A DNA stretch of 32,000 nucleotides from Candidatus Saccharimonadota bacterium (GTDB lineage Bacteria > Patescibacteriota > Saccharimonadia > Saccharimonadales > Saccharimonadaceae), in contig CP064995.1 of NCBI GenBank assembly GCA_016700015.1, positions 1 to 32,000 on the forward strand, written 5' to 3'. Below, in pieces: positions 2,080-31,947 of the stretch (position 1 is the stretch's first letter; each line of letters starts with the position of its first letter). Under the pieces are notes generated by a model. It was not told where the DNA came from and did not search any database. It saw only the letters and a program-made list of their open reading frames with translations. A program made the translations under genes and the position numbers.

Positions 2080-3204
2080 TTATCGTGCGGCATTGAGTAT
2101 TGCGATATCGCGTGTTTTCATCATGGCAAGGCCGCTGGCGCTGCCATCTTCGTCGACAGTATTACCACTCTGTATCCAGGCTATGGCCTCGTCGATAGAG
2201 CTGGCCCAGCGTAGGTTCATGCCCTCACTCGCTTCTTTTTCGGTGAGCTGCGTGCCCACAAAGTCGACCACCCGTGCCGTAAAGCAATACGACACTTGGT
2301 GCATACCGCAAAAATACCGGTTTTCGTCTACCGTGCCGAGCGGTCGAATGTCAGTTATCGTATGGCCGGTTTCTTCTAACACTTCGCGCTCAAGTGCAGC
2401 GATGATTTCTTCGCCTTCATCAATTCCACCGCCCGGCAGTTTGTATGACCCGGTTTTGGTGAAGTGCATCACGGCCACTTGGCCTTTGTCATTCGTCAGA
2501 ACAGCGCGAGCGGCGAGCCGCGTAAAGTGAATCGGCCCATCGCTTGTTTCGGCAAGTCCCATTTCGTGCTGGTCCTGCGAAAGAATAACAGCAAAGCTAA
2601 TTCGCTCATATATCGTTCCTGATTTTTCGGCTGCCTGCTTCATCCAGTTGTCGACGAATTGTTTACCAGCTTCGCTCAGCACGGCATCATGTGTGGGGAA
2701 GGCGCGTATCGGTCGAACTTGTATAAGATAATCCATGGCTTCTGCAGTTTTCATCCATGGCGCTGCTATGGGAACGGCAAGTGTTTCTATTGGCATACCA
2801 GCTGACGCAAATGAGTCACCGGGGTAGTACACTTCACCATCATTTATCAGCACGCCGACGTTTCGACACATAGGTATGTCGGGGTGAATGAGCGCATGCT
2901 CGCCGCCAGTGAAAGTGAGTTTGAAATTACCTACTTGTTTTGTTTCCCCTGGCTTAACAACTGTCACGTTAAGGTTGAGTTCGCGTAGCCGATTGGCCGC
3001 ATCGTCAGGAGCAAATACTGGTACATTTGGCATCTGGGTAAGGTAATTAGCACTCCAATGGTCACTATGAATATGCGTGACAACCACGGCGACTGGGTTT
3101 TTAGGAACAGTAAAGTCGCTAGATAGCTCACCCGGGTCGACAACCACCGATTGGCCATCTTTGGTTGCGATAAAACAGGCATGGGCGTATTTCGTAATTT
3201 CCAT
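2080..3204 (-). CDS. MBL-fold metallo-hydrolase fused to a NUDIX hydrolase domain
   Basis: The N-terminal half has the HxHxDH motif (VTHIHSDHW). The C-terminal half has a canonical Nudix box (GGGIDEGEEIIAALEREVLEETG). I set the start to ATG 3204 (MEITKYAHA...) rather than the track start 3279, because a TATAAT lies 6 nt upstream. Confidence 0.8.
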   Translation of the reverse strand: MEITKYAHACFIATKDGQSVVVDPGELSSDFTVPKNPVAVVVTHIHSDHWSANYLTQMPNVPVFAPDDAANRLRELNLNVTVVKPGETKQVGNFKLTFTGGEHALIHPDIPMCRNVGVLINDGEVYYPGDSFASAGMPIETLAVPIAAPWMKTAEAMDYLIQVRPIRAFPTHDAVLSEAGKQFVDNWMKQAAEKSGTIYERISFAVILSQDQHEMGLAETSDGPIHFTRLAARAVLTNDKGQVAVMHFTKTGSYKLPGGGIDEGEEIIAALEREVLEETGHTITDIRPLGTVDENRYFCGMHQVSYCFTARVVDFVGTQLTEKEASEGMNLRWASSIDEAIAWIQSGNTVDEDGSASGLAMMKTRDIAILNAAR

Positions 3205-3210
3205 ACAGCT

Positions 3211-3220
3211 ATTATATAAT
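3211..3220. promoter_or_regulatory. palindromic ATTATATAAT forming two overlapping divergent -10 boxes
   Basis: TATAAT at 3215-3220 (plus strand) and TATAAT as the rc of 3211-3216 (minus strand). The ATGs lie 7 nt (3228) and 6 nt (3204) away. Confidence 0.5.
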
Positions 3221-3227
3221 GCAGAGC

Positions 3228-3479
3228 ATGGTAGCACGAAAAACATCGAAAAAACATTCATCAAACACAACATATGCATGGTTTCGCCCGCTGCGCGGTA
3301 GCTATATTCCGGTGCATTGGAAGGGCTGGCTGACGTATGTACCCTATGTGGCGTACCTGTACTTCACCTACATGCTGCTAGTGCCAAACCGCTCATTACT
3401 CGAAACAATCCTGTTCCTTGTACCATACTGGGTAGCGGGCGTGATTGTGATGCACTGGGTAGCAAAGCAAAAAAGCTAA
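3228..3479 (+). CDS. small membrane protein (83 aa), hypothetical
   Basis: The ORF has two hydrophobic segments. ATG 3228 lies 7 nt after TATAAT 3215-3220. Its TAA stop overlaps the next ATG (TAATG at 3477-3481), which suggests coupling. Confidence 0.4.
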   Translation: MVARKTSKKHSSNTTYAWFRPLRGSYIPVHWKGWLTYVPYVAYLYFTYMLLVPNRSLLETILFLVPYWVAGVIVMHWVAKQKS

Positions 3480-4303
3480 TGCAGCCAAATGAGTTTCGCG
3501 AGTTGGTGTGGGACAAAGCGCGCCAGCTGTACCGAGACATGCCCTGGCGCGATGAGCCGACGTTTTACCACGTGCTGGTAAGTGAACTGATGTTGCAACA
3601 AACCCAGGTTTCACGCGTATTGGTAAAATACGCCGAATTTATGGAAGTGTTCCCAACCATTCAGGCACTGGCGGCGGCTAGCTTGGCAGATGTATTAAAA
3701 GTGTGGACAGGCCTCGGCTACAACCGTAGGGCTAAGTATCTGCACTTGGCAGCAAAACAGGTGGTAGAGCACGGCGAACCGGCAACACTCGAAGGACTAG
3801 TTGCCTTACCAGGAGTCGGCAAGAACACGGCCGGTGCCATCATGAACTATGTTTACAATAGTGCGACGCCGTTTGTTGAAACCAATATTCGCTCTGTGTA
3901 TTTTCACCATTTTTTTGCAGGCGAAACGACAGTGAGTGATAAAGAGCTGCTAGAGCTAGTAGCAGCAACTATCGACCCCGAACACCCGCGCGAATTTTGC
4001 TGGGCGCTCATGGACTATGGTGCCGAGCTAAAAGCCGCTGGCCTGGCACGGCTTGGCACCAGTAAACACTACAAGAAGCAACCGCCGCTTGCGGGCAGTG
4101 TGCGTGAAGTGCGCGGCCAGGTAGTACGCCTACTAGCTGCTGGTCCGCTGACTTTGCGAGATCTCAAAGTGAGGGCCGGGGCAGACGAACGATTTGAGCG
4201 TGCACTGAACGGTCTTGTTGACGATGGGTTGGTGAGAAGACAAGGTACAATGATTTGTTTGACCGATGATGGGGTGGTGGGGGATAATAGGAATGATGAC
4301 TAA
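3479..4303 (+). CDS. HhH-GPD base-excision glycosylase, MutY-like catalytic domain (A/G-specific adenine glycosylase family)
   Basis: LVSELMLQQTQVSRVLVKYAEFMEVFPT and LPGVGKNTAGAIM (helix-hairpin-helix) match MutY. I set the start to ATG 3479 (MQPNEF...), not the track start 3317. There is no C-x6-C-x2-C-x5-C cluster motif, and a short winged-helix-like tail replaces the MutT-like domain. Confidence 0.78.
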   Translation: MQPNEFRELVWDKARQLYRDMPWRDEPTFYHVLVSELMLQQTQVSRVLVKYAEFMEVFPTIQALAAASLADVLKVWTGLGYNRRAKYLHLAAKQVVEHGEPATLEGLVALPGVGKNTAGAIMNYVYNSATPFVETNIRSVYFHHFFAGETTVSDKELLELVAATIDPEHPREFCWALMDYGAELKAAGLARLGTSKHYKKQPPLAGSVREVRGQVVRLLAAGPLTLRDLKVRAGADERFERALNGLVDDGLVRRQGTMICLTDDGVVGDNRNDD

Positions 4304-18381: not shown

Positions 18382-18457
18382 TGGTGGGGGTGGAAGGGAT
18401 TGAACCTTCGACCAACAGGTTATGAGCCCGCTGCTCTAACCACTGAGCTACACCCCC
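18382..18457 (-). tRNA. tRNA with anticodon CAT (elongator Met or lysidine-dependent Ile2)
   Basis: 76-nt cloverleaf: acceptor GGGGGTG/CACCCCC, D arm GCTC-AGTGGTTA-GAGC, anticodon loop CTCATAA (CAT = rc of 18422-18424), T arm GAAGG-TTCAATC-CCTTC, CCA encoded. G1-C72 is paired, so it is not an initiator. Confidence 0.9.
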
Positions 18458-18997: not shown

Positions 18998-19075
<78 letters not shown>

Positions 19076-26188: not shown

Positions 26189-26265
26189 TGGTAGCAGCGA
26201 CAGGGAACGATCCTGTGACCTTAGGCTTATGAGTCCTACGCTCTAACCAACTGAGCTACGCTGCC
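26189..26265 (-). tRNA. tRNA with anticodon CAT (elongator-Met-like), non-canonical T loop
   Basis: 77 nt: GGCAGCGTAGCTCAGTTGGTTAGAGCG-TAGGA-CTCATAA-GCCTA-AGGTC-ACAGG-ATCGTTC-CCTGT-CGCTGCT-ACCA. The 5' half resembles E. coli elongator tRNA-Met. Oddities are listed in the findings. Confidence 0.75.
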
Positions 26266-27535: not shown

Positions 27536-28099
27536 ATGTATTTCATCACAGGCAACGCAGGCAAGTTTCGGGAAGCGAGTGCCTTTATCGACGGGCTGCA
27601 GCAGCTCGATATCGATCTCACAGAGCCACAGTCACTCGATCCGCGGGAGGTAATTGAATTTAAACTACTTGAAGCGCGCAAACATCACACTGGCGGGTTT
27701 ATTGTCGAAGACAGGTCGCTCTACCTCGACGGGCTCAATGGTTTTCCCGGTCCACTTATCAAATGGATGCTTAAAAGTGTCGGGCAGCAAGGCATTTACA
27801 ACCTGTGCCGCGATATCCGCAACATGAGAGCGCATGCCAAAACGGTCATCGGTTATTCTGACGCCACCGGACATATTAAATATTTTGAGGGAGACATTGG
27901 CGGGGATATTGTGTTGCCCGCGGGTGAGTATGGTTTTGGTTGGGACCAGATATTTAAACCTGATGGTTTTGAAGAAACGTTTGGCGAAATGGGGCAGGAG
28001 TTCAAGGGCAAATTTAGTATGCGGAGTCTCGCGTTTAAGCAGCTGCGAGAGTACCTTGATGGTAACATATTGCAAAAGCTTAAAAACACTTTACAATGA
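27536..28099 (+). CDS. non-canonical purine NTP pyrophosphatase (HAM1/RdgB ITPase family)
   Basis: FITGNAGKFREA..., EPQS..., FIVEDRSLYLDGLNGFPGPLIKW and FGWDQIF match HAM1-family motifs. Confidence 0.85.
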   Translation: MYFITGNAGKFREASAFIDGLQQLDIDLTEPQSLDPREVIEFKLLEARKHHTGGFIVEDRSLYLDGLNGFPGPLIKWMLKSVGQQGIYNLCRDIRNMRAHAKTVIGYSDATGHIKYFEGDIGGDIVLPAGEYGFGWDQIFKPDGFEETFGEMGQEFKGKFSMRSLAFKQLREYLDGNILQKLKNTLQ

Positions 28100-28687: not shown

Positions 28688-28948
28688 TTAGTTGTAGAGC
28701 GACACCGCGACCTGGCGAAATCCAGCCAGCAACTGGGCCTGGAATCGGTGGCGGCCATCGCGGACCGTGTAGAACGTGCCGCAATCCTCGACGACGATGG
28801 GCGGGAAGGTATCTCCCCGGTCGTAGTCGCTCAGGTAGCGGGCAATCTTGGCCTGCGACAGCTTGCGCAGCTTTTTCGGGTTGACCCGAACCAGCTGGAC
28901 GTCAACATAACGGATCTCGCCATCGGGGCGAGCATGAACATCGTACAT
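28688..28948 (-). CDS. small ParB/sulfiredoxin-fold (ParB-like nuclease domain) protein (86 aa)
   Basis: PPIVVEDCGTFYTVRDGRHRFQAQLLAG matches the ParB N-terminal domain core (DGxHR). AGGAG lies 7 nt upstream. Confidence 0.62.
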   Translation of the reverse strand: MYDVHARPDGEIRYVDVQLVRVNPKKLRKLSQAKIARYLSDYDRGDTFPPIVVEDCGTFYTVRDGRHRFQAQLLAGFRQVAVSLYN

Positions 28949-29052: not shown

Positions 29053-29448
29053 CTAATCTGCCGTCTCTAAGGCAAGGAGCGCGGCGACTCGCTCCGCAAG
29101 AAGCCGGTATCTCCGGCGTGTATTTTCGTTTTCTAGTACGTACTCTCGCGTATCACCGTCGACAGGTGCTGGCTCAAATTGCTGGTCGACGGGGTATTGA
29201 TCGCGCGAGATATCAATGACGGTACCGTCCCCAAGTATGTTGCGATAATGCGTTTCGCGGGTGCCGTGAAATTCTGTTGCGAGGCGGTCGAGTGTGCCGC
29301 CAAGGTAATCCTGTACTACCAGCGAAGTCGGTACGCACTGTCCGCGTGCAGGAGTGAGGCCCGCGTCCCATTCATCGGGGCTACTGGTGGTATCTTTCGA
29401 CCAGCTCTTACGAACGATATGGGTGAGTGTGTCGGGTGAAAATGACAT
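29053..29448 (-). CDS. uncharacterised protein, YunG-like (family assigned from memory)
   Basis: ATG 29448 has AAGGAGG 6 nt upstream. WSKDTTSSPDEWDAGLTPARGQCVPTSLVVQDYLGG resembles the W..W...P..GQC..T.LVV.D.LGG pattern. Confidence 0.5.
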   Translation of the reverse strand: MSFSPDTLTHIVRKSWSKDTTSSPDEWDAGLTPARGQCVPTSLVVQDYLGGTLDRLATEFHGTRETHYRNILGDGTVIDISRDQYPVDQQFEPAPVDGDTREYVLENENTRRRYRLLAERVAALLALETAD

Positions 29449-29498
29449 AGGTTGCCTCCTTTCCACCCAGTTAGCTATAGCTAGTATAGCAGGGGATT

Positions 29499-29507
29499 TG
29501 CTATAAT
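29499..29507 (+). promoter_or_regulatory. extended -10 promoter element (TGcTATAAT) for the polymerase locus
   Basis: TG at 29499-29500 and TATAAT at 29502-29507. It is the only promoter-like element I can see upstream of 29673-31947. Confidence 0.45.
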
Positions 29508-29672
29508 AATACGTACTTCCAGGTGATACTCACTGTTCGCCAGCTGGCGGATAAGCGTCCCTCGCCATAGGATCATCAGTTGTCTACGGACGAATCGCTA
29601 GAAACGGGCGAGGGGACGGGCAACACATTTCAACCAACGTTTCTCTGACAACCTAATCGGAGATAATTTGAA

Positions 29673-29822
29673 ATGAACGATGAATCGGTACTACCTGTGT
29701 TCTATATTGAAACGCCACGCACTTCGGGGCGGCTGGAAAAAATCGATGTATTGCTCGAAAAGCGTATGCGCGAGTTTTTGCTCATGAGGCGCCAAAAGGT
29801 CTGGCGCAAAGCGACGGACTAG
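29673..29822 (+). CDS. candidate small ORF (49 aa)
   Basis: MNDESVLPVFYIETPRTSGRLEKIDVLLEKRMREFLLMRRQKVWRKATD. GGAG lies 10 nt upstream, and the stop is 1 nt before the next ATG. Confidence 0.3.
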   Translation: MNDESVLPVFYIETPRTSGRLEKIDVLLEKRMREFLLMRRQKVWRKATD

Positions 29823-29823
29823 C

Positions 29824-30090
29824 ATGGATAGCGAAATCATGCTTGATGAGCGGGTACAGGTAGTAGCAGTATTTAGTACTGGGCTGCATCCGTGCCAGCC
29901 GGTACGATTTCGGCGCAGCAGCGGCAGGGAAGTGACGATTACCGAGATTGGCCTGTGTCACCCTACAGTACACGGCCGACGAACCGTCCATGTGTTCGAT
30001 GTGACGGATGGCGGTGCTGACTACCGACTGGTGTTTGATACTGAGCGGCTGACGTGGACGCTTGTTATGGAGGCGGATCATGGCAATTAA
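29824..30090 (+). CDS. hypothetical protein (88 aa) upstream of the Y-family polymerase
   Basis: Track ORF with an ATG start immediately after the 49-aa ORF. No family recognised. Confidence 0.45.
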   Translation: MDSEIMLDERVQVVAVFSTGLHPCQPVRFRRSSGREVTITEIGLCHPTVHGRRTVHVFDVTDGGADYRLVFDTERLTWTLVMEADHGN

Positions 30091-30663
30091 TCCTTTCTTT
30101 TCTTTATTCTTGAAAAGAAACAAAAGAAACGACATCCTTTTGTGCGACAAAAGGATGCAAAAACATGGGGGTAGGCTTCGGTCCGCGGTGAGTTTCGCGC
30201 TCAAAGTATCCGGTTGCCTGCGGAACTCGCGCCAACAGACGCCACTGTTGGGCTCAAACAGTCCTCGGCAAGCCGTATACTTTTCCCACTCTACTCCCGG
30301 GGCCTGCAGATTACCCCCATACCCCCAGCCATATGTGCGGCTTTGCCGCAATCATATCATGAACCATGCGGTGCATGGTTCATGTGGGTCCAGGGAGCCA
30401 GCTGGCCCAAGAATGAAATCAGCAAGCTCATGGAATCATTCACGAAACTTTGTCCGCAACCAACAATATCGACATTGTTGCGGACCGATCCCTTCAGGGT
30501 CGTTGTTTCGTGACTATGAGCTTGCCGATTTCATACATGGCGCCAGGCGGATATCCTTGGTCGTGTTTGCTTCTTTGCTCGAAACAAAGAAGAGTTTTGC
30601 TCCTTTTGCTTCAAAAGGAGTCGTTTTTTGCTTCTTTAGCGAAATAAAAAGAAGGAGATTTTT
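30091..30663 (+). ncRNA. candidate large structured RNA / cis-regulatory leader (unassigned family)
   Basis: More than a dozen nested helices, including perfect 11- and 12-bp stems and an 18/19 long-range helix. It is stop-free in several frames on both strands. A terminator-like hairpin with a T-run lies at 30600-30629. The strand is inferred from the flanking genes only. Confidence 0.45.
30600..30629 (+). terminator. terminator-like hairpin inside the leader, 35 nt upstream of the polymerase start
   Basis: CTCCTTTTG (30600-30608) / CAAAAGGAG (30612-30620), followed by TCGTTTTTT. Confidence 0.5.
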
Positions 30664-31947
30664 GTGTTGATAAAACACAATTATAATCCAAATCGGCCGC
30701 TGGTGATGCATATCGACCTCAATAGCTGTTTTGCCACAGTCGAGCAGCAGGCCAGGCCGCTTCTGCGCGGTCGTCCAGTAGCGATCGTCAACCGCCGCAC
30801 CGAGCATACCATGATTGTCACCTGTAGCTACGAGGCTAAGGCTATGGGTGTCAAGCTTGGCATGCGCCTGCGTGATGCTAAGAAGCTGTGTCCCGACCTG
30901 ATCGGGCTCGAGAGCGATCCGCCCAAGTATCGGTACGTGTATCACAAGATGATGGCTATCATGCGTGATTACAGCCCAAGCTTTACGATGAAGAGTATCG
31001 ATGAGGGGGTGATTGACTTTGCCCAGGCACCGGCCAGTATGCGTGACCGCGATATGGTAGAAATTGCCAAAGAGATCAAGGGTCGTCTGCTAGGCGAAAT
31101 CGGTTGCTGGATGCGCTGCAACATTGGTATCGCACCAAACCGCTTCTTGGCTAAAACTGCTGCTGGGCTGAACAAACCTGACGGCCTGACAGTGATTAGT
31201 CACGAGAATTTGCGCGAAGTACTAGGTAAGATGGAGCTGCAAGATCTCACGGGCATCGCCGCGCGCAATGAACATCGACTCAATATGGTGGGGATTTATA
31301 CGCCACTGCAGTTTATTGATGCCGACCCGCAAATTCTACAAAAAGTGGTATTTAAGAGCATCTGTGGTTTGCAGTGGCATCAGCGTTTGCGGGGGTGGGA
31401 AGTTGACGATGTGAGTTATGACCTGAAAACTTGTGGGCGGCAGTACGTGCTTGAGAGCCGAGATCTGACGAAACAACAGGTGGCGCAGCGATTGCATCAT
31501 TTGGTCGAATCGGTGGGTGCCAAGCTGCGGAGTCAGGGTAAATGCGCGCGGGGTGTTGGCGTGTATGTACGGTTTTATGGTGCTGAAGGACTGGCTGAGA
31601 CAAACGGACGATGGGGAAGAAAGGGAAGCTATTGGCACGGCAAATACCTCGCTCCCCTGCCCTTTTACTCTGATACAGCGATTTGGGCGATTGCCAGCCA
31701 ACTGTTTCGTCATGCTCCGCCTGGCAGTATGCGCGAAATCGGTATTCATGTGTACCATTTACACGATGACTCTGGCGACCAGCTAAGTTTATTTGGCGAT
31801 GAGCTCGCGAAAGAACAGCACGTCGTATGGGCGATTGATGAGATTAATGCTCGCTACGGTGAACGCACCATTCACAGTGCCGACACATTGGGAACTGGCC
31901 ATTTCGTGAAACAAAAAATCCCCTTTGGCAGTACCCGCTATTTATAG
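30664..31947 (+). CDS. Y-family DNA polymerase (UmuC/ImpB/DinB superfamily)
   Basis: VMHIDLNSCFATVEQ (first catalytic Asp and steric-gate region, with the D-x-N found in UmuC), SYEAKAMGVKLGM, AKKLCPDL and SIDEGVIDF (catalytic D-E). GTG start with GAAGGAG 6 nt upstream. Confidence 0.9.
   Translation: MLIKHNYNPNRPLVMHIDLNSCFATVEQQARPLLRGRPVAIVNRRTEHTMIVTCSYEAKAMGVKLGMRLRDAKKLCPDLIGLESDPPKYRYVYHKMMAIMRDYSPSFTMKSIDEGVIDFAQAPASMRDRDMVEIAKEIKGRLLGEIGCWMRCNIGIAPNRFLAKTAAGLNKPDGLTVISHENLREVLGKMELQDLTGIAARNEHRLNMVGIYTPLQFIDADPQILQKVVFKSICGLQWHQRLRGWEVDDVSYDLKTCGRQYVLESRDLTKQQVAQRLHHLVESVGAKLRSQGKCARGVGVYVRFYGAEGLAETNGRWGRKGSYWHGKYLAPLPFYSDTAIWAIASQLFRHAPPGSMREIGIHVYHLHDDSGDQLSLFGDELAKEQHVVWAIDEINARYGERTIHSADTLGTGHFVKQKIPFGSTRYL

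Follow-up and report, generated by a model that had tools for sequence, protein, structure and literature searches.

What kind of operon contains the Y-family polymerase gene at the end of the window, and which of the structured segments in front of this gene is its regulatory RNA? The window is the whole stretch of 32,000 nucleotides that was analysed. A previous sequence-only reading had listed a promoter box, a structured leader, two tiny ORFs, a giant RNA element and a UmuC-like polymerase. It suggested either a riboregulated damage-tolerance cassette with novel small accessory proteins, or an RNA that serves the polymerase as substrate, template or scaffold. All of the listed features were found in the sequence at the positions given (Table 1); their meaning differs from that first reading. 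We consider it quite probable that these genes form a translesion-synthesis operon in which, as in others of a known type, a standalone ImuB-C protein is combined with an active Y-family polymerase, here in a Candidatus Saccharibacteria genome. The conserved core of this operon is the 88-aa ImuB-C protein together with the polymerase.

Table 1. Features of the polymerase operon and their positions in the window.
Feature	Position	Strand	Details and basis
Extended -10-like box TGCTATAAT	29499-29507	+	read from sequence
Conserved structured 5' leader RNA	29517-29649	+	~130 nt; alignments, covariation, covariance model
Leader P1	29522-26/29562-66	+	
Leader P2 hairpin	29535-52	+	
Leader P3	29580-84 and 29587-88 with 29617-23	+	
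Leader P4	29600-06/29638-44	+	
Hairpin P5, sequestering the ribosome-binding site	29642-29663	+	UCUCUG 29642-47 / CGGAGA 29658-63; GGAG 29659-62
orf49, lineage-restricted small protein	29673-29822	+	49 aa
orf88, standalone ImuB-C domain protein, putative polymerase accessory subunit	29824-30090	+	88 aa
Composite structured element, orf88/polymerase junction	30091-30663	+	~573 nt
Left terminal hairpins	30091-30132 and 30133-30157	+	inverted repeats I6, I10
Rod module	30391-30562	+	long stem with two capping hairpins, A (30452-30485) and the invariant B (30486-30502)
Apex motif GGACCGATCCCTTCAGGGTCG	30482-30502	+	
Right terminal hairpin array	30566-30655	+	direct repeat family D1; three TTTGCTYCTTT-led units, 30-31-nt spacing
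Y-family DNA polymerase	30664-31947	+	427 aa, GTG start; Pfam
QLSLF beta-clamp-binding motif	31780-31794	+	residues 373-377; read from sequence
RecA-NT-like/DUF4113-like motif VVWAIDEINARYGERTIHSA	31822-31881	+	C-terminal extension

The polymerase and its small upstream partners

The polymerase was matched by the Pfam families IMS (2.5e-36) and IMS_C (1.9e-11), while the best NCBIfam models were Pol IV types with 211 bits, which is below their cut-off. An assignment as UmuC equivalog was rejected, since the score with the NCBIfam UmuC model was no more than 76 bits, where 431 are required. The residues D18, D113 and E114, which from knowledge of Dpo4 and DinB we take to be the catalytic ones, sit in HIDLN and SIDE motifs and were conserved in the 11 aligned relatives. 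We infer from the sequence that the polymerase is catalytically active. Relatives also kept the clamp motif in the form of the pattern Q-L/M-S/T-L/I/F-F/Y; the beta-clamp binding of QLSLF-type motifs is established knowledge and is described in PMC6511836. In the C-terminal extension Pfam DUF4113 matched residues 390-406 weakly (E 0.042, 14.3 bits, cut-off 24). The pattern A-I/V-D-x-I-N-x-R-Y/F-G-x-R-T-I/V-H was kept there in all 10 Saccharibacteria-type relatives, and the polymerase of the distant locus L024 carries a diverged but recognisable form of it, ALQSVNDRYGELTL. The tail is probably RecA-NT-like, in the sense of the RecA-NT motif described in PMC6511836.

Directly 5' of the IMS polymerase a homologue of orf88 was found in 21 of 21 Saccharibacteria-type lineages and also at the distant loci L021, L024 and L025. 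The earlier proposal would have failed if the small ORFs were not conserved or lacked coding signatures; both proved to be real genes. The homologues of orf88 with an identity of about 70% number at least 200, and a search of 1.8 billion representatives gave 266 matching clusters (E<=1e-3). Using hhalign we compared the family with the 84-aa middle gene of a lexA-X-polY operon on the Geobacter anodireducens plasmid pSD. The wide orf88-family alignment (A5) aligned with this gene over 81 columns with a probability of 98.3% (E 2e-14), and the Saccharibacteria alignment (A3) with 89.5% (E 2e-6). From the organism and the operon structure, the Geobacter gene appears to be the orthologue of GSU0042. 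In PMC3765255 and PMC6511836 ImuB-C is defined by operons of this type, with GSU0042 as prototype; it is a globular, mostly beta-stranded domain of ~80 aa (PMC3765255).

The AF2 model of orf88 (pLDDT 84) is all-beta with seven strands and no helix, and no fold match was found in the PDB. W78 is the sole invariant column in the wide alignment of 66 sequences, whose consensus also contains a G-R pair at positions 34-35; within the close family three arginines (R31, R53, R68) do not vary at all and R35 hardly varies. A protein of ~80 aa with an all-beta fold, a conserved C-terminal Trp and no relative in the PDB fits ImuB-C as characterised in PMC12926913. Pfam DUF6504 gave sub-threshold matches in 17 of the 66 distant relatives (best 1.7e-5), while the window's own orf88 protein had no Pfam match, DUF6504 included. 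By its profile match to the Geobacter gene, orf88 is a member of the known ImuB-C family, which makes the statement that the locus has no known accessory genes wrong. Members of this family, which was described in PMC3765255 and PMC6511836, are known to accompany Y-family polymerases, though their function is poorly understood.

The gene orf49, separated from orf88 by a single base, is restricted to some lineages: it is missing from most, and the leader there runs directly into orf88. Its homologues form eight clusters, in which Y11, I12, E13, T14, P15, I24, D25, R31, M32, R33 and W44 are invariant. Substitutions fall mostly on third codon positions and many are synonymous; judged by this pattern orf49 is a real gene. 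The AF2 model (pLDDT 78) contains one long basic helix (18-48), preceded by an N-terminal arm that is predicted to be disordered and that holds the invariant YIETP. No match was obtained in Pfam, NCBIfam or PADLOC.

As the sequence-only reading had already noted, no gene for an UmuD/LexA-type S24 peptidase, YolD, ImuA/ImuB or RecA adjoins the operon, which holds for Pfam scans of the window and of the neighbour genes in relatives; a lexA gene or S24 domain was likewise absent among the neighbours in both. A YolD/YqjX-PolY2 module was ruled out since neither small ORF gave a YolD match in Pfam, nor did any of 57 scanned family members (up to E 10).

A conserved leader RNA with a predicted ribosome-binding-site hairpin

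About 10 nt upstream of the structured leader lies the promoter box. All 8 aligned relatives have a TATAAT/TATACT-type box with the same spacing to the leader. No -35 match was found for the TGCTATAAT box and a two-hexamer promoter scan did not list the site, such that the promoter is called solely from a conserved -10 box.

RNAalifold on the leader alignment recovered P1-P3 with compensatory changes. The pair cells of the alignment were paired in 96.6% of cases, compared to 35-44% when the partners were slid, and nine pairs were changed on both sides, which was equalled by none of 500 shuffles. Since P3 and P4 are mostly invariant, covariation says little for these two helices: P3 contains one covarying pair, and the two column pairs of P4 that changed on both sides come from a single sequence, with each arm one base shorter. 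The order of P3 and P4 is that of a pseudoknot, for which reason they may coexist rather than alternate. A covariance model of the leader gave one match per locus in ~291 kb searched, and each match preceded this operon. L008 and L009, which were both outside the training set, were recovered as well. Rfam contained no match for the leader at E<=10. The DNA identity of the leader is 91% in L017-L020 and 86% in L001; for comparison, the identity of the orf88 protein is 84% and 70%, respectively. The leader is a new RNA motif and the likely regulatory RNA of the operon, a role that does not fall to the 573-nt element.

The leader helix of 11 bp that had been proposed before (29556-66/29607-18) can indeed form and is part of the minimum-energy fold of the leader in the window's own sequence, in which this clade-specific helix replaces P1 and P3. 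Of the 15 aligned lineages just three (the window, L017 and L001) have its complementary 3' arm GCGAGGGGACGG. The conserved structure must be another one, since this helix overlaps those for which covariation was seen in the family as a whole.

Downstream, each of 13 relatives examined can fold a hairpin of 7-9 bp around a GGAG/GAGG site, and the arms of this P5 hairpin covary (e.g. CUCUAA/UUAGAG and CUCAAA/UUUGAG). The 5' arm of P5 and the 3' arm of P4 have 3 nt in common, and the predicted energies of both are equal (-5.7 kcal/mol each). P4 and P5 would thus compete for the same three nucleotides: with P4 held by the upstream domain the ribosome-binding site would be free for translation, while without this hold P5 would shut it. 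Like a riboswitch, the leader combines a covariation-supported secondary structure in a 5' UTR with a predicted expression platform, i.e. P5 over the ribosome-binding site and its 3-nt overlap with P4.

The same conservation could have another origin, if the leader acted mainly as a DNA operator for a repressor that replaces LexA, rather than through RNA structure. Long invariant blocks (AAGCGTCCCTC, GTCT.CGG, AACGG and ACGG.C) that lie just 3' of the promoter would agree with this, being a conservation of sequence rather than of pairing. A DNA operator does not account for the nine pairs that changed on both sides with pairing kept, for the shuffling result or for the covariation of the ribosome-binding-site hairpin in all 13 sequences. 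In addition, 130 nt would be unusually long for an operator. We regard it as unlikely, and prefer the leader as a regulatory RNA.

The 573-nt element at the gene junction

The large structured element that had been postulated between orf88 and the polymerase was confirmed: its fold of -248 kcal/mol lies far beyond that of shuffled sequences (z = -12.6; none of 100 as good). Rfam contained no match for it. At its left end 31 of 32 nt are identical to an end of the L001 copy, and the CTTTTG..CAAAAG hairpins of the window are confined to the element. The rod architecture is common to the subfamilies, whose stem sequences differ yet stay complementary in the folds. In 25 of 26 copies the strand carrying the motif folds better, by a mean of -12 kcal/mol, and contains more G-U pairs. 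This strand asymmetry together with the covarying rod and its invariant apex indicates selection on RNA or single-strand structure. The right array contains terminator-like sites at 30570-92 and 30599-621 and ends with AAGGAG, 8 nt 5' of the polymerase GTG; dispersed copies have a 3' tail of the same kind after their rod.

Comparison of the relatives shows that orf88 and the polymerase gene ancestrally shared an ATGA stop/start overlap, with translational coupling. The element is missing in 20 of 21 related lineages, in which the two genes overlap as ATGA or are 1-108 nt apart. The one other carrier, L001, holds it in inverted and shorter form (~400 nt; 417 nt between tblastn matches), with ~71% identity to the window copy and a 150-nt module difference. 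Both copies are flanked by imperfect direct repeats of 10-13 bp, which in the window are CAATTAATCC (30084-93) and CAATTATAATCC (30678-89), and the inverted ends of the element are imperfect as well. The apex motif occurred exactly in 28 metagenome loci, none of them with orf88 or the polymerase. In 17 dispersed copies about 92% was conserved over ~250 nt while the flanks were unrelated. One contig (L040) holds two copies and the 32-kb window one; no transposase was among the 10 proteins scanned that flank dispersed copies. By this comparison the element is a secondary insertion at the ancestral ATGA overlap, and the polymerase does not have in it an RNA partner of its own. A dispersed, strand-specific structured repeat would have inserted at the ImuB-C/polymerase junction and broken the coupling, and would now itself provide the AAGGAG for the polymerase.

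Three other roles of the element were weighed against such an insertion. It could have been recruited as an adaptive regulator of this locus that uncouples translation of the polymerase from that of ImuB-C, attenuates read-through or supplies a promoter or ribosome-binding site. The insertion junction is near-identical in two lineages, a purine-rich, Shine-Dalgarno-like end precedes the polymerase start in both orientations, terminator-like hairpins lie inside the element, and the polymerase ORF is still intact with all motifs. We nevertheless consider this improbable, given the 20 of 21 related lineages that manage without the element, a core that adjoins unrelated genes, and the opposite orientation in L001, by which the operon mRNAs carry different strands of a strongly strand-asymmetric family. 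The imperfect inverted repeats at the ends and the two orientations at the same junction would also be expected from an invertible DNA switch, in which terminal inverted hairpin arrays flip the polymerase on and off. This appears very improbable: identity between the two copies is no higher than about 71%, one of them lacks the 150-nt module by which they differ, their direct repeats are different and a few bases apart, such that independent insertions fit better, both independent assemblies of the window's strain show the window orientation, and no recombinase gene was found among the neighbour genes by Pfam. The proposal that the RNA is template, substrate or scaffold of the polymerase, as in retron or DRT systems, drew on the position of a large structured non-coding region directly 5' of the polymerase gene. 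Some Y-family polymerases are reported to accept RNA templates in vitro. The polymerase here is a Y-family enzyme and not a reverse transcriptase, none of the three proteins matched a PADLOC family, and Rfam gave neither a retron nor any other match. Close polymerase homologues lacking the upstream element, which the proposal itself had named as evidence against it, are the rule; together with the inverted L001 copy and the core at 28 loci without these genes, comparative genomics effectively refutes this role, to which we give hardly any probability. The preferred reading thus remains that of a secondary insertion, for which parallels exist. ERIC/IRU, BOX, Correia and RUP are likewise non-coding, structured and modular; they are scattered over many unrelated intergenic regions, some within operons, and can point either way. 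The present element differs by its strong strand asymmetry and covarying rod and has no sequence relation to any named family. Its inverted ends, imperfect as they are, and the short direct repeats that may flank it would be in keeping with a MITE-like element.

Relation to known damage-tolerance systems

The closest counterparts of the gene pair are operons of the Geobacter sulfurreducens lexA-GSU0042-polY type, in which an all-beta protein of ~85 aa with a C-terminal Trp is likewise encoded directly 5' of the polymerase. PMC6511836 and PMC12926913 describe a PolY-[ImuB-C]-RecA module whose coupled polymerase is also catalytically intact and has a clamp motif; its RecA-NT-like tail is a trait that the present polymerase probably shares. 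LexA is often, not universally, encoded in its operon, whereas here there is none in or beside it. Compared with ImuB-C/PolY operons the present locus has a structured RNA leader, an extra 45-59-aa protein in some lineages and the 573-nt split. In the accessible parts of the ImuB-C literature (Timinskas & Venclovas 2019/2026; Aravind et al. 2013) we found no mention of Saccharibacteria/CPR.

Pol V of E. coli (UmuD'2C-RecA-ATP) resembles the locus in a small beta-rich accessory protein encoded just 5' and probably in a C-terminal motif of the DUF4113/RecA-NT type. Its partner is an S24 autopeptidase, whereas orf88 gave no S24 match in Pfam, and the ImuB-C fold is reported as distinct from the UmuD' barrel in PMC12926913. 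The ImuA-ImuB-DnaE2 mutasome contains the ImuB-C domain, here present as a separate protein; no ImuA or DnaE2 gene lies nearby, and the Y-family member is catalytically intact. YqjW-YqjX and UvrX-YolD of B. subtilis also combine a small upstream partner gene with a Y-family polymerase, without UmuD. The unstructured N-terminal arm of the YqjX/YolD-type partner probably inserts into the polymerase. A likeness of this arm to the predicted disordered arm of orf49 is speculation. Translational riboswitches share with the leader a promoter-proximal multi-helix domain, invariant unpaired blocks and a subsequent overlapping ribosome-binding-site hairpin, though the leader has no Rfam family and is tied to a single operon type.

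Considering its intact catalytic residues, the beta-clamp motif and the probable RecA-NT-like tail, the polymerase most likely acts as a clamp-bound enzyme at stalled forks together with ImuB-C and RecA. Joint action of ImuB-C and RecA in such modules is proposed in PMC6511836 and PMC12926913. A riboregulated damage-tolerance cassette, as first suggested, holds in outline for the covarying leader and the real small genes, but the family of orf88 was already known and the regulator is not the 573-nt element. The gene pair is of an already known damage-tolerance kind; its novelty lies in the folded RNA leader that is conserved ahead of the genes. The operon contains no lexA; in Saccharibacteria a promoter and the structured leader precede it instead, and in some lineages a small protein of 45-59 aa (arm and basic helix) was added between leader and ImuB-C. 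Tentatively, and with more doubt than confidence, the leader may represent a new riboswitch or effector-sensing class that replaces LexA/SOS control. The ribosome-binding site, which it would open or close, would then make the synthesis of ImuB-C and the polymerase depend on a signal, either a small molecule or a protein, that reports damage to DNA or the nucleotide pool, and orf49 would be a further new subunit of that translesion complex.

The operon and its ImuB-C-polymerase pair

All features that the sequence-only reading had named were found in the sequence where it had placed them, and the nearest relatives of the polymerase come from Saccharibacteria MAGs. The earlier description of this enzyme as UmuC-like is imprecise: the highest-scoring NCBIfam models are those of Pol IV types, with 211 bits and thus under their cut-offs, and the UmuC model reaches only 76 bits.

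Features of the operon and of its leader RNA
Feature	Position	Strand	Remark
-10-like promoter box TGCTATAAT	29499-29507	+	sequence read
Leader	ends 29672	+	sequence read
P1	29522-26 / 29562-66	+	leader helix
P2	hairpin 29535-52	+	leader helix
P3	29580-88 / 29617-23	+	long-range
P4	29600-06 / 29638-44	+	leader helix
RBS hairpin	29642-47 / 29658-63	+	3 nt common with the 3' arm of P4
orf49 (49 aa)	29673-29822	+	sequence read
orf88 (88 aa)	29824-30090	+	starts one base after orf49
Non-coding element, 573 nt	30091-30663	+	folds far better than shuffles, z = -12.6
Y-family polymerase, 427 aa	30664-31947	+	Pfam IMS 2.5e-36, IMS_C 1.9e-11

The homologues of orf88 with about 70% identity number at least 200, and an orf88 profile search of 1.84 billion representatives matched 266 clusters of 80-120-aa proteins. 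All 14 genome loci found via the polymerase have a homologue immediately upstream of that gene, as do seven further lineages retrieved via orf88. Distant members with 30-38% identity are likewise found immediately upstream of a polymerase (the downstream fragment at locus L021 matches IMS at 5.8e-37, and locus L024 is arranged alike). One distant member matches an 84-aa "hypothetical protein" of the Geobacter anodireducens plasmid pSD, whose gene has lexA on one side and a frameshifted Y-family polymerase gene on the other. The wide family profile aligned to this protein over its full length with a probability of 98.3% (E 2e-14); profile comparison using the Saccharibacteria orf88 sequences alone gave 89.5% (E 2e-6). 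The pSD polymerase gene (L025:3252-4480) is split into two overlapping ORFs of 288 and 128 aa, which indicates a frameshift or pseudogene, and it is absent from the gene table of the plasmid.

PMC3765255 and PMC6511836 name as prototype of the ImuB-C superfamily GSU0042, the middle gene of the Geobacter lexA-X-polY operon, and describe beta-rich proteins of about 80 residues with a conserved C-terminal Trp that mostly adjoin a Pol IV-type gene. The AlphaFold model of orf88 is all-beta with seven strands (pLDDT 84), and W78 is the sole invariant column in the wide alignment. Foldseek of the model against the PDB returned no match at E<=0.001, and sequence and profile searches of the PDB with orf88 gave none or chance matches only. 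This agrees with ImuB-C being reported, in PMC12926913, as a beta-barrel without close PDB relatives. Sub-threshold matches to Pfam DUF6504 occurred in 17 of 66 distant orf88 members; the window orf88 gave no DUF6504 match, and its Pfam and NCBIfam scans were empty. When the wide alignment was used for a profile search, the best 120 matches all belonged to the close clade. As judged by sequence comparison, orf88 is a standalone ImuB-C protein, the link being made via profile comparison with the Geobacter protein from pSD.

The catalytic motifs HIDLN and SIDE of the polymerase (D18, D113, E114) are intact, as well as conserved in the relatives, such that the enzyme should be active. C-terminal of the little-finger domain it carries a beta-clamp motif (QLSLF, residues 373-377), followed by VVWAIDEINARYGERTIHSA, a stretch that is conserved in relatives and matches DUF4113 weakly (E 0.042). 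According to PMC6511836, DUF4113-type tails are homologous to the RecA N-terminal oligomerisation motif and are a hallmark of Y-family polymerases presumed to cooperate with RecA, ones paired with ImuB-C among them. With its ImuB-C partner, clamp motif and probable RecA-NT-type tail, the locus core thus falls into the published "PolY-[ImuB-C]-RecA" module type, for which we infer a physical complex. PADLOC gave no match for orf49, orf88 or the polymerase.

The smaller protein, orf49, is identical to NCBI IPM09_00205 of a Candidatus Saccharibacteria bacterium and has eight homologue clusters. Its substitutions are biased to third codon positions, and the residues YIETP, ID, RMR and W are invariant. 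These sequence data indicate that orf49 is a genuine, lineage-restricted gene. Where it is absent, the leader runs straight into orf88. The likeness between its N-terminus (MNDES) and that of orf88 (MNDE) suggests that orf49 originated from an insertion where orf88 begins. The predicted structure comprises a disordered N-terminal arm and one long basic helix, and scans of orf49 with Pfam and NCBIfam returned nothing; that it serves as an additional subunit binding the polymerase is speculative.

Shortly before the translesion operon the window contains a Ham1/ITPase-type nucleotide-pool sanitising gene (27536-28099, plus strand, Pfam 3.6e-35) and a YunG-family gene that is divergent from the leader promoter (29053-29466, minus strand, 1.7e-25). 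In other lineages the operon has different neighbours. An 86-aa ORF (28688-28948, minus strand), also gene-called in the sister assembly L015, shows a weak sub-threshold match to the ParB N-terminal domain (E 0.053). Three tRNA genes within 8 kb all have a CAT anticodon (18382-18457, minus; 18998-19075, plus; 26189-26265, minus) and could represent initiator, elongator and possibly tRNA-Ile2 precursor types.

The leader RNA

The leader DNA is 91% identical in the related loci L017-L020 and 86% in L001, where the orf88 protein is 84% and 70% identical, respectively. An alignment of 15 lineages revealed the invariant blocks AAGCGUCCCUC, U.GUCU.CGG, AACGG and ACGG.C between covarying helices. In P3 one pair changes from U-A to C-G in 6 of the 15 sequences, and in the lineage L058 both arms of P4 are one base shorter. 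For the 13-sequence alignment, 96.6% of the cells are paired compared to 35-44% when the partners are slid; nine pairs changed at both sides, and none of 500 shuffles reached the observed values. The covariance model built from the leader finds one match per locus, always upstream of this operon, and nothing else in 291 kb searched. L008 and L009, although no part of its training set, are recovered by the model as well.

Two other foldings were considered. An 11-bp helix (29556-66 / 29607-18), which had been highlighted in the sequence-only reading, dominates the minimum-energy fold of the window. Only three of the 15 lineages aligned have the 3' arm that complements it, and the helix is in competition with P1 and P3; being clade-specific, it was rejected as functional structure. 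A local UNCG hairpin at GUCUNCGG was ruled out as well, since the long-range pairing of this segment with ACGGGCRA covaries (of 15 sequences, 9 have UA and 6 have CG).

In all 13 sequences P4 is directly followed by a hairpin of 7-9 bp whose arms covary and which encloses the GGAG/GAGG site. P4 and this RBS hairpin have equal predicted energy and would form as alternatives, with the upstream leader domain deciding whether P4 forms. From these alternatives we infer that the leader may gate translation of the operon. The proposal of a riboregulated damage-tolerance cassette with small accessory proteins is borne out in outline, as the leader is conserved and covarying and orf49 and orf88 are genuine genes. 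The regulating RNA would, however, be the 5' leader rather than the 573-nt element, and the chief accessory protein is a member of the known ImuB-C family instead of a novel one.

In the more distant lineages L010-L014 the leader is shorter and of a different kind, lies about 130 nt ahead of the orf88 homologue (e.g. L013:95-200) and is not detected by the leader model. It contains one hairpin that covaries, GAGYCA-YRCUUCGGYCMC-UGRYUC, and another, CGACGCCAAUAUUGCGUC. In two further loci (L005:3634-3740 and L055:2388-2500) an extra hairpin-rich insertion of about 90 nt lies between P4 and the RBS and ends with GGAGGGGC-GA-GCCCCTCC just before GGAGA.

The element between orf88 and the polymerase gene

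The sequence-only reading had also considered, by analogy to retrons, that the 573-nt element provides an RNA serving the polymerase as substrate, template or scaffold. By the standard which that reading had set itself, namely that close polymerase homologues usually lack the element, the idea is refuted. In relatives the orf88 and polymerase genes abut or overlap without the element: the stop codon of orf88 and the start codon of the polymerase gene share the sequence ATGA, or 1-108 nt separate them. In L017-L020, the lineage nearest to the window, the two genes overlap. Among the loci compared, only the strain of the window (with the identical L015 and L016) and L001 carry a large insert. 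That of L001 is about 400 nt long (417 nt between tblastn matches), has the opposite orientation and lacks a 150-nt module. Imperfect direct repeats of about 10-13 bp flank both inserts and lie a few bases apart where the polymerase gene begins: CAATTAATCC (30084-93) and CAATTATAATCC (30678-89) in the window, and ATGAGG at both sides in L001. The inverted copy and the different, slightly displaced repeats would fit two independent insertions. Judging from this comparison, the element is a secondary insertion and no dedicated partner of the polymerase. Its insertion broke the translational coupling from orf88 to the polymerase; it contains terminator-like hairpins and places AAGGAG 8 nt before the polymerase GTG. 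An ORF of 196-202 aa across the element (window 30062-30670, plus strand; L015:5257-5847; L016:455-1045) is gene-called in public assemblies and is almost certainly a spurious call over non-coding sequence.

Between the window and L001 copies, hairpins are preserved through compensatory changes, which is evidence for selection on the element structure. Metagenome contigs contain 28 exact matches to the invariant core GGACCGATCCCTTYAGGGTCG, and orf88 and the polymerase are absent from all of these contigs. Seventeen copies are about 92% conserved over about 250 nt with unrelated flanks. Element copies adjoin unrelated housekeeping genes; the neighbours include DnaE, ribosomal protein S1, a sigma-like protein and an oxidoreductase. 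No transposase was found among ten neighbouring proteins scanned, and viral contigs scanned for the core gave no match. One contig has two copies on opposite strands (L040:2414-2606 and 3568-3760), which flank a 255-aa ORF (2656-3423, minus strand) without Pfam match at E<=1e-5; the arrangement (L040:2414-3760) resembles a composite or invertible unit.

Common to the subfamilies is a long rod whose sequence varies yet stays paired (e.g. CACGAAAC/GUUUCGUG, CGAAAAAC/GUUUUUCG, GCCGGAAG/CUUUCGGC, CGUCGUGG/CCACGGCG), with a cap made of a variable hairpin closed by GUCC/GGAC and the invariant hairpin CGAUCCCUUYAGGGUCG. The rod structure was derived from single-sequence folds and strand asymmetry, as a cross-subfamily MAFFT alignment was structurally inconsistent. 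This dispersed family of rods of about 250 nt with the invariant apex GGACCGAUCCCUUYAGGGUCG is represented in the metagenome contigs L027-L054 (e.g. L052:8806-8998) and in the window (rod at 30391-30562); after the rod come hairpins of the ACTTTTG..CAAAAGT and ATTTGCTTCTTT..AAAGAAG types. The motif-bearing strand, which carries GGACCGAUCCC, is the operon strand in the window and antisense in L001. It folds better than its complement in 25 of 26 copies, many of them closely related to each other, by a mean of -12 kcal/mol and with more G-U pairs. This asymmetry indicates that selection acts on a structure which the motif strand forms as RNA or in single-stranded form. Rfam scans of the window (gathering and E<=10) gave only three tRNAs and two chance matches, and no family matched the element there or in eight element-bearing loci. 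The element may represent an sRNA gene family, an RNA-structured mobile repeat or a single-stranded DNA element.

Significance of the locus

What is known here is the pair of ImuB-C and an active Y-family polymerase; worth pursuing are the leader motif and the dispersed element family. Once the element is recognized as an unrelated insertion, the retron-like reading, however appealing, falls away as wrong. The element also draws attention to a family of dispersed structured RNAs or repeats that Rfam lacks, and it exposes an annotation problem, as gene callers make a spurious 196-aa "gene" out of it. Few components of the mutagenic polymerase systems of bacteria are as poorly understood as ImuB-C, and a clade with genomes of about 1 Mb in which it is strictly paired with and translationally coupled to an active polymerase offers a clean setting for its study. 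The leader is a new candidate structured RNA that is directly testable. Translesion polymerases are classically under LexA control. No lexA was found in or near the operon at any Saccharibacteria locus examined, and the conserved leader with its RBS hairpin suggests that control in the Candidate Phyla Radiation is of another kind and acts after transcription.
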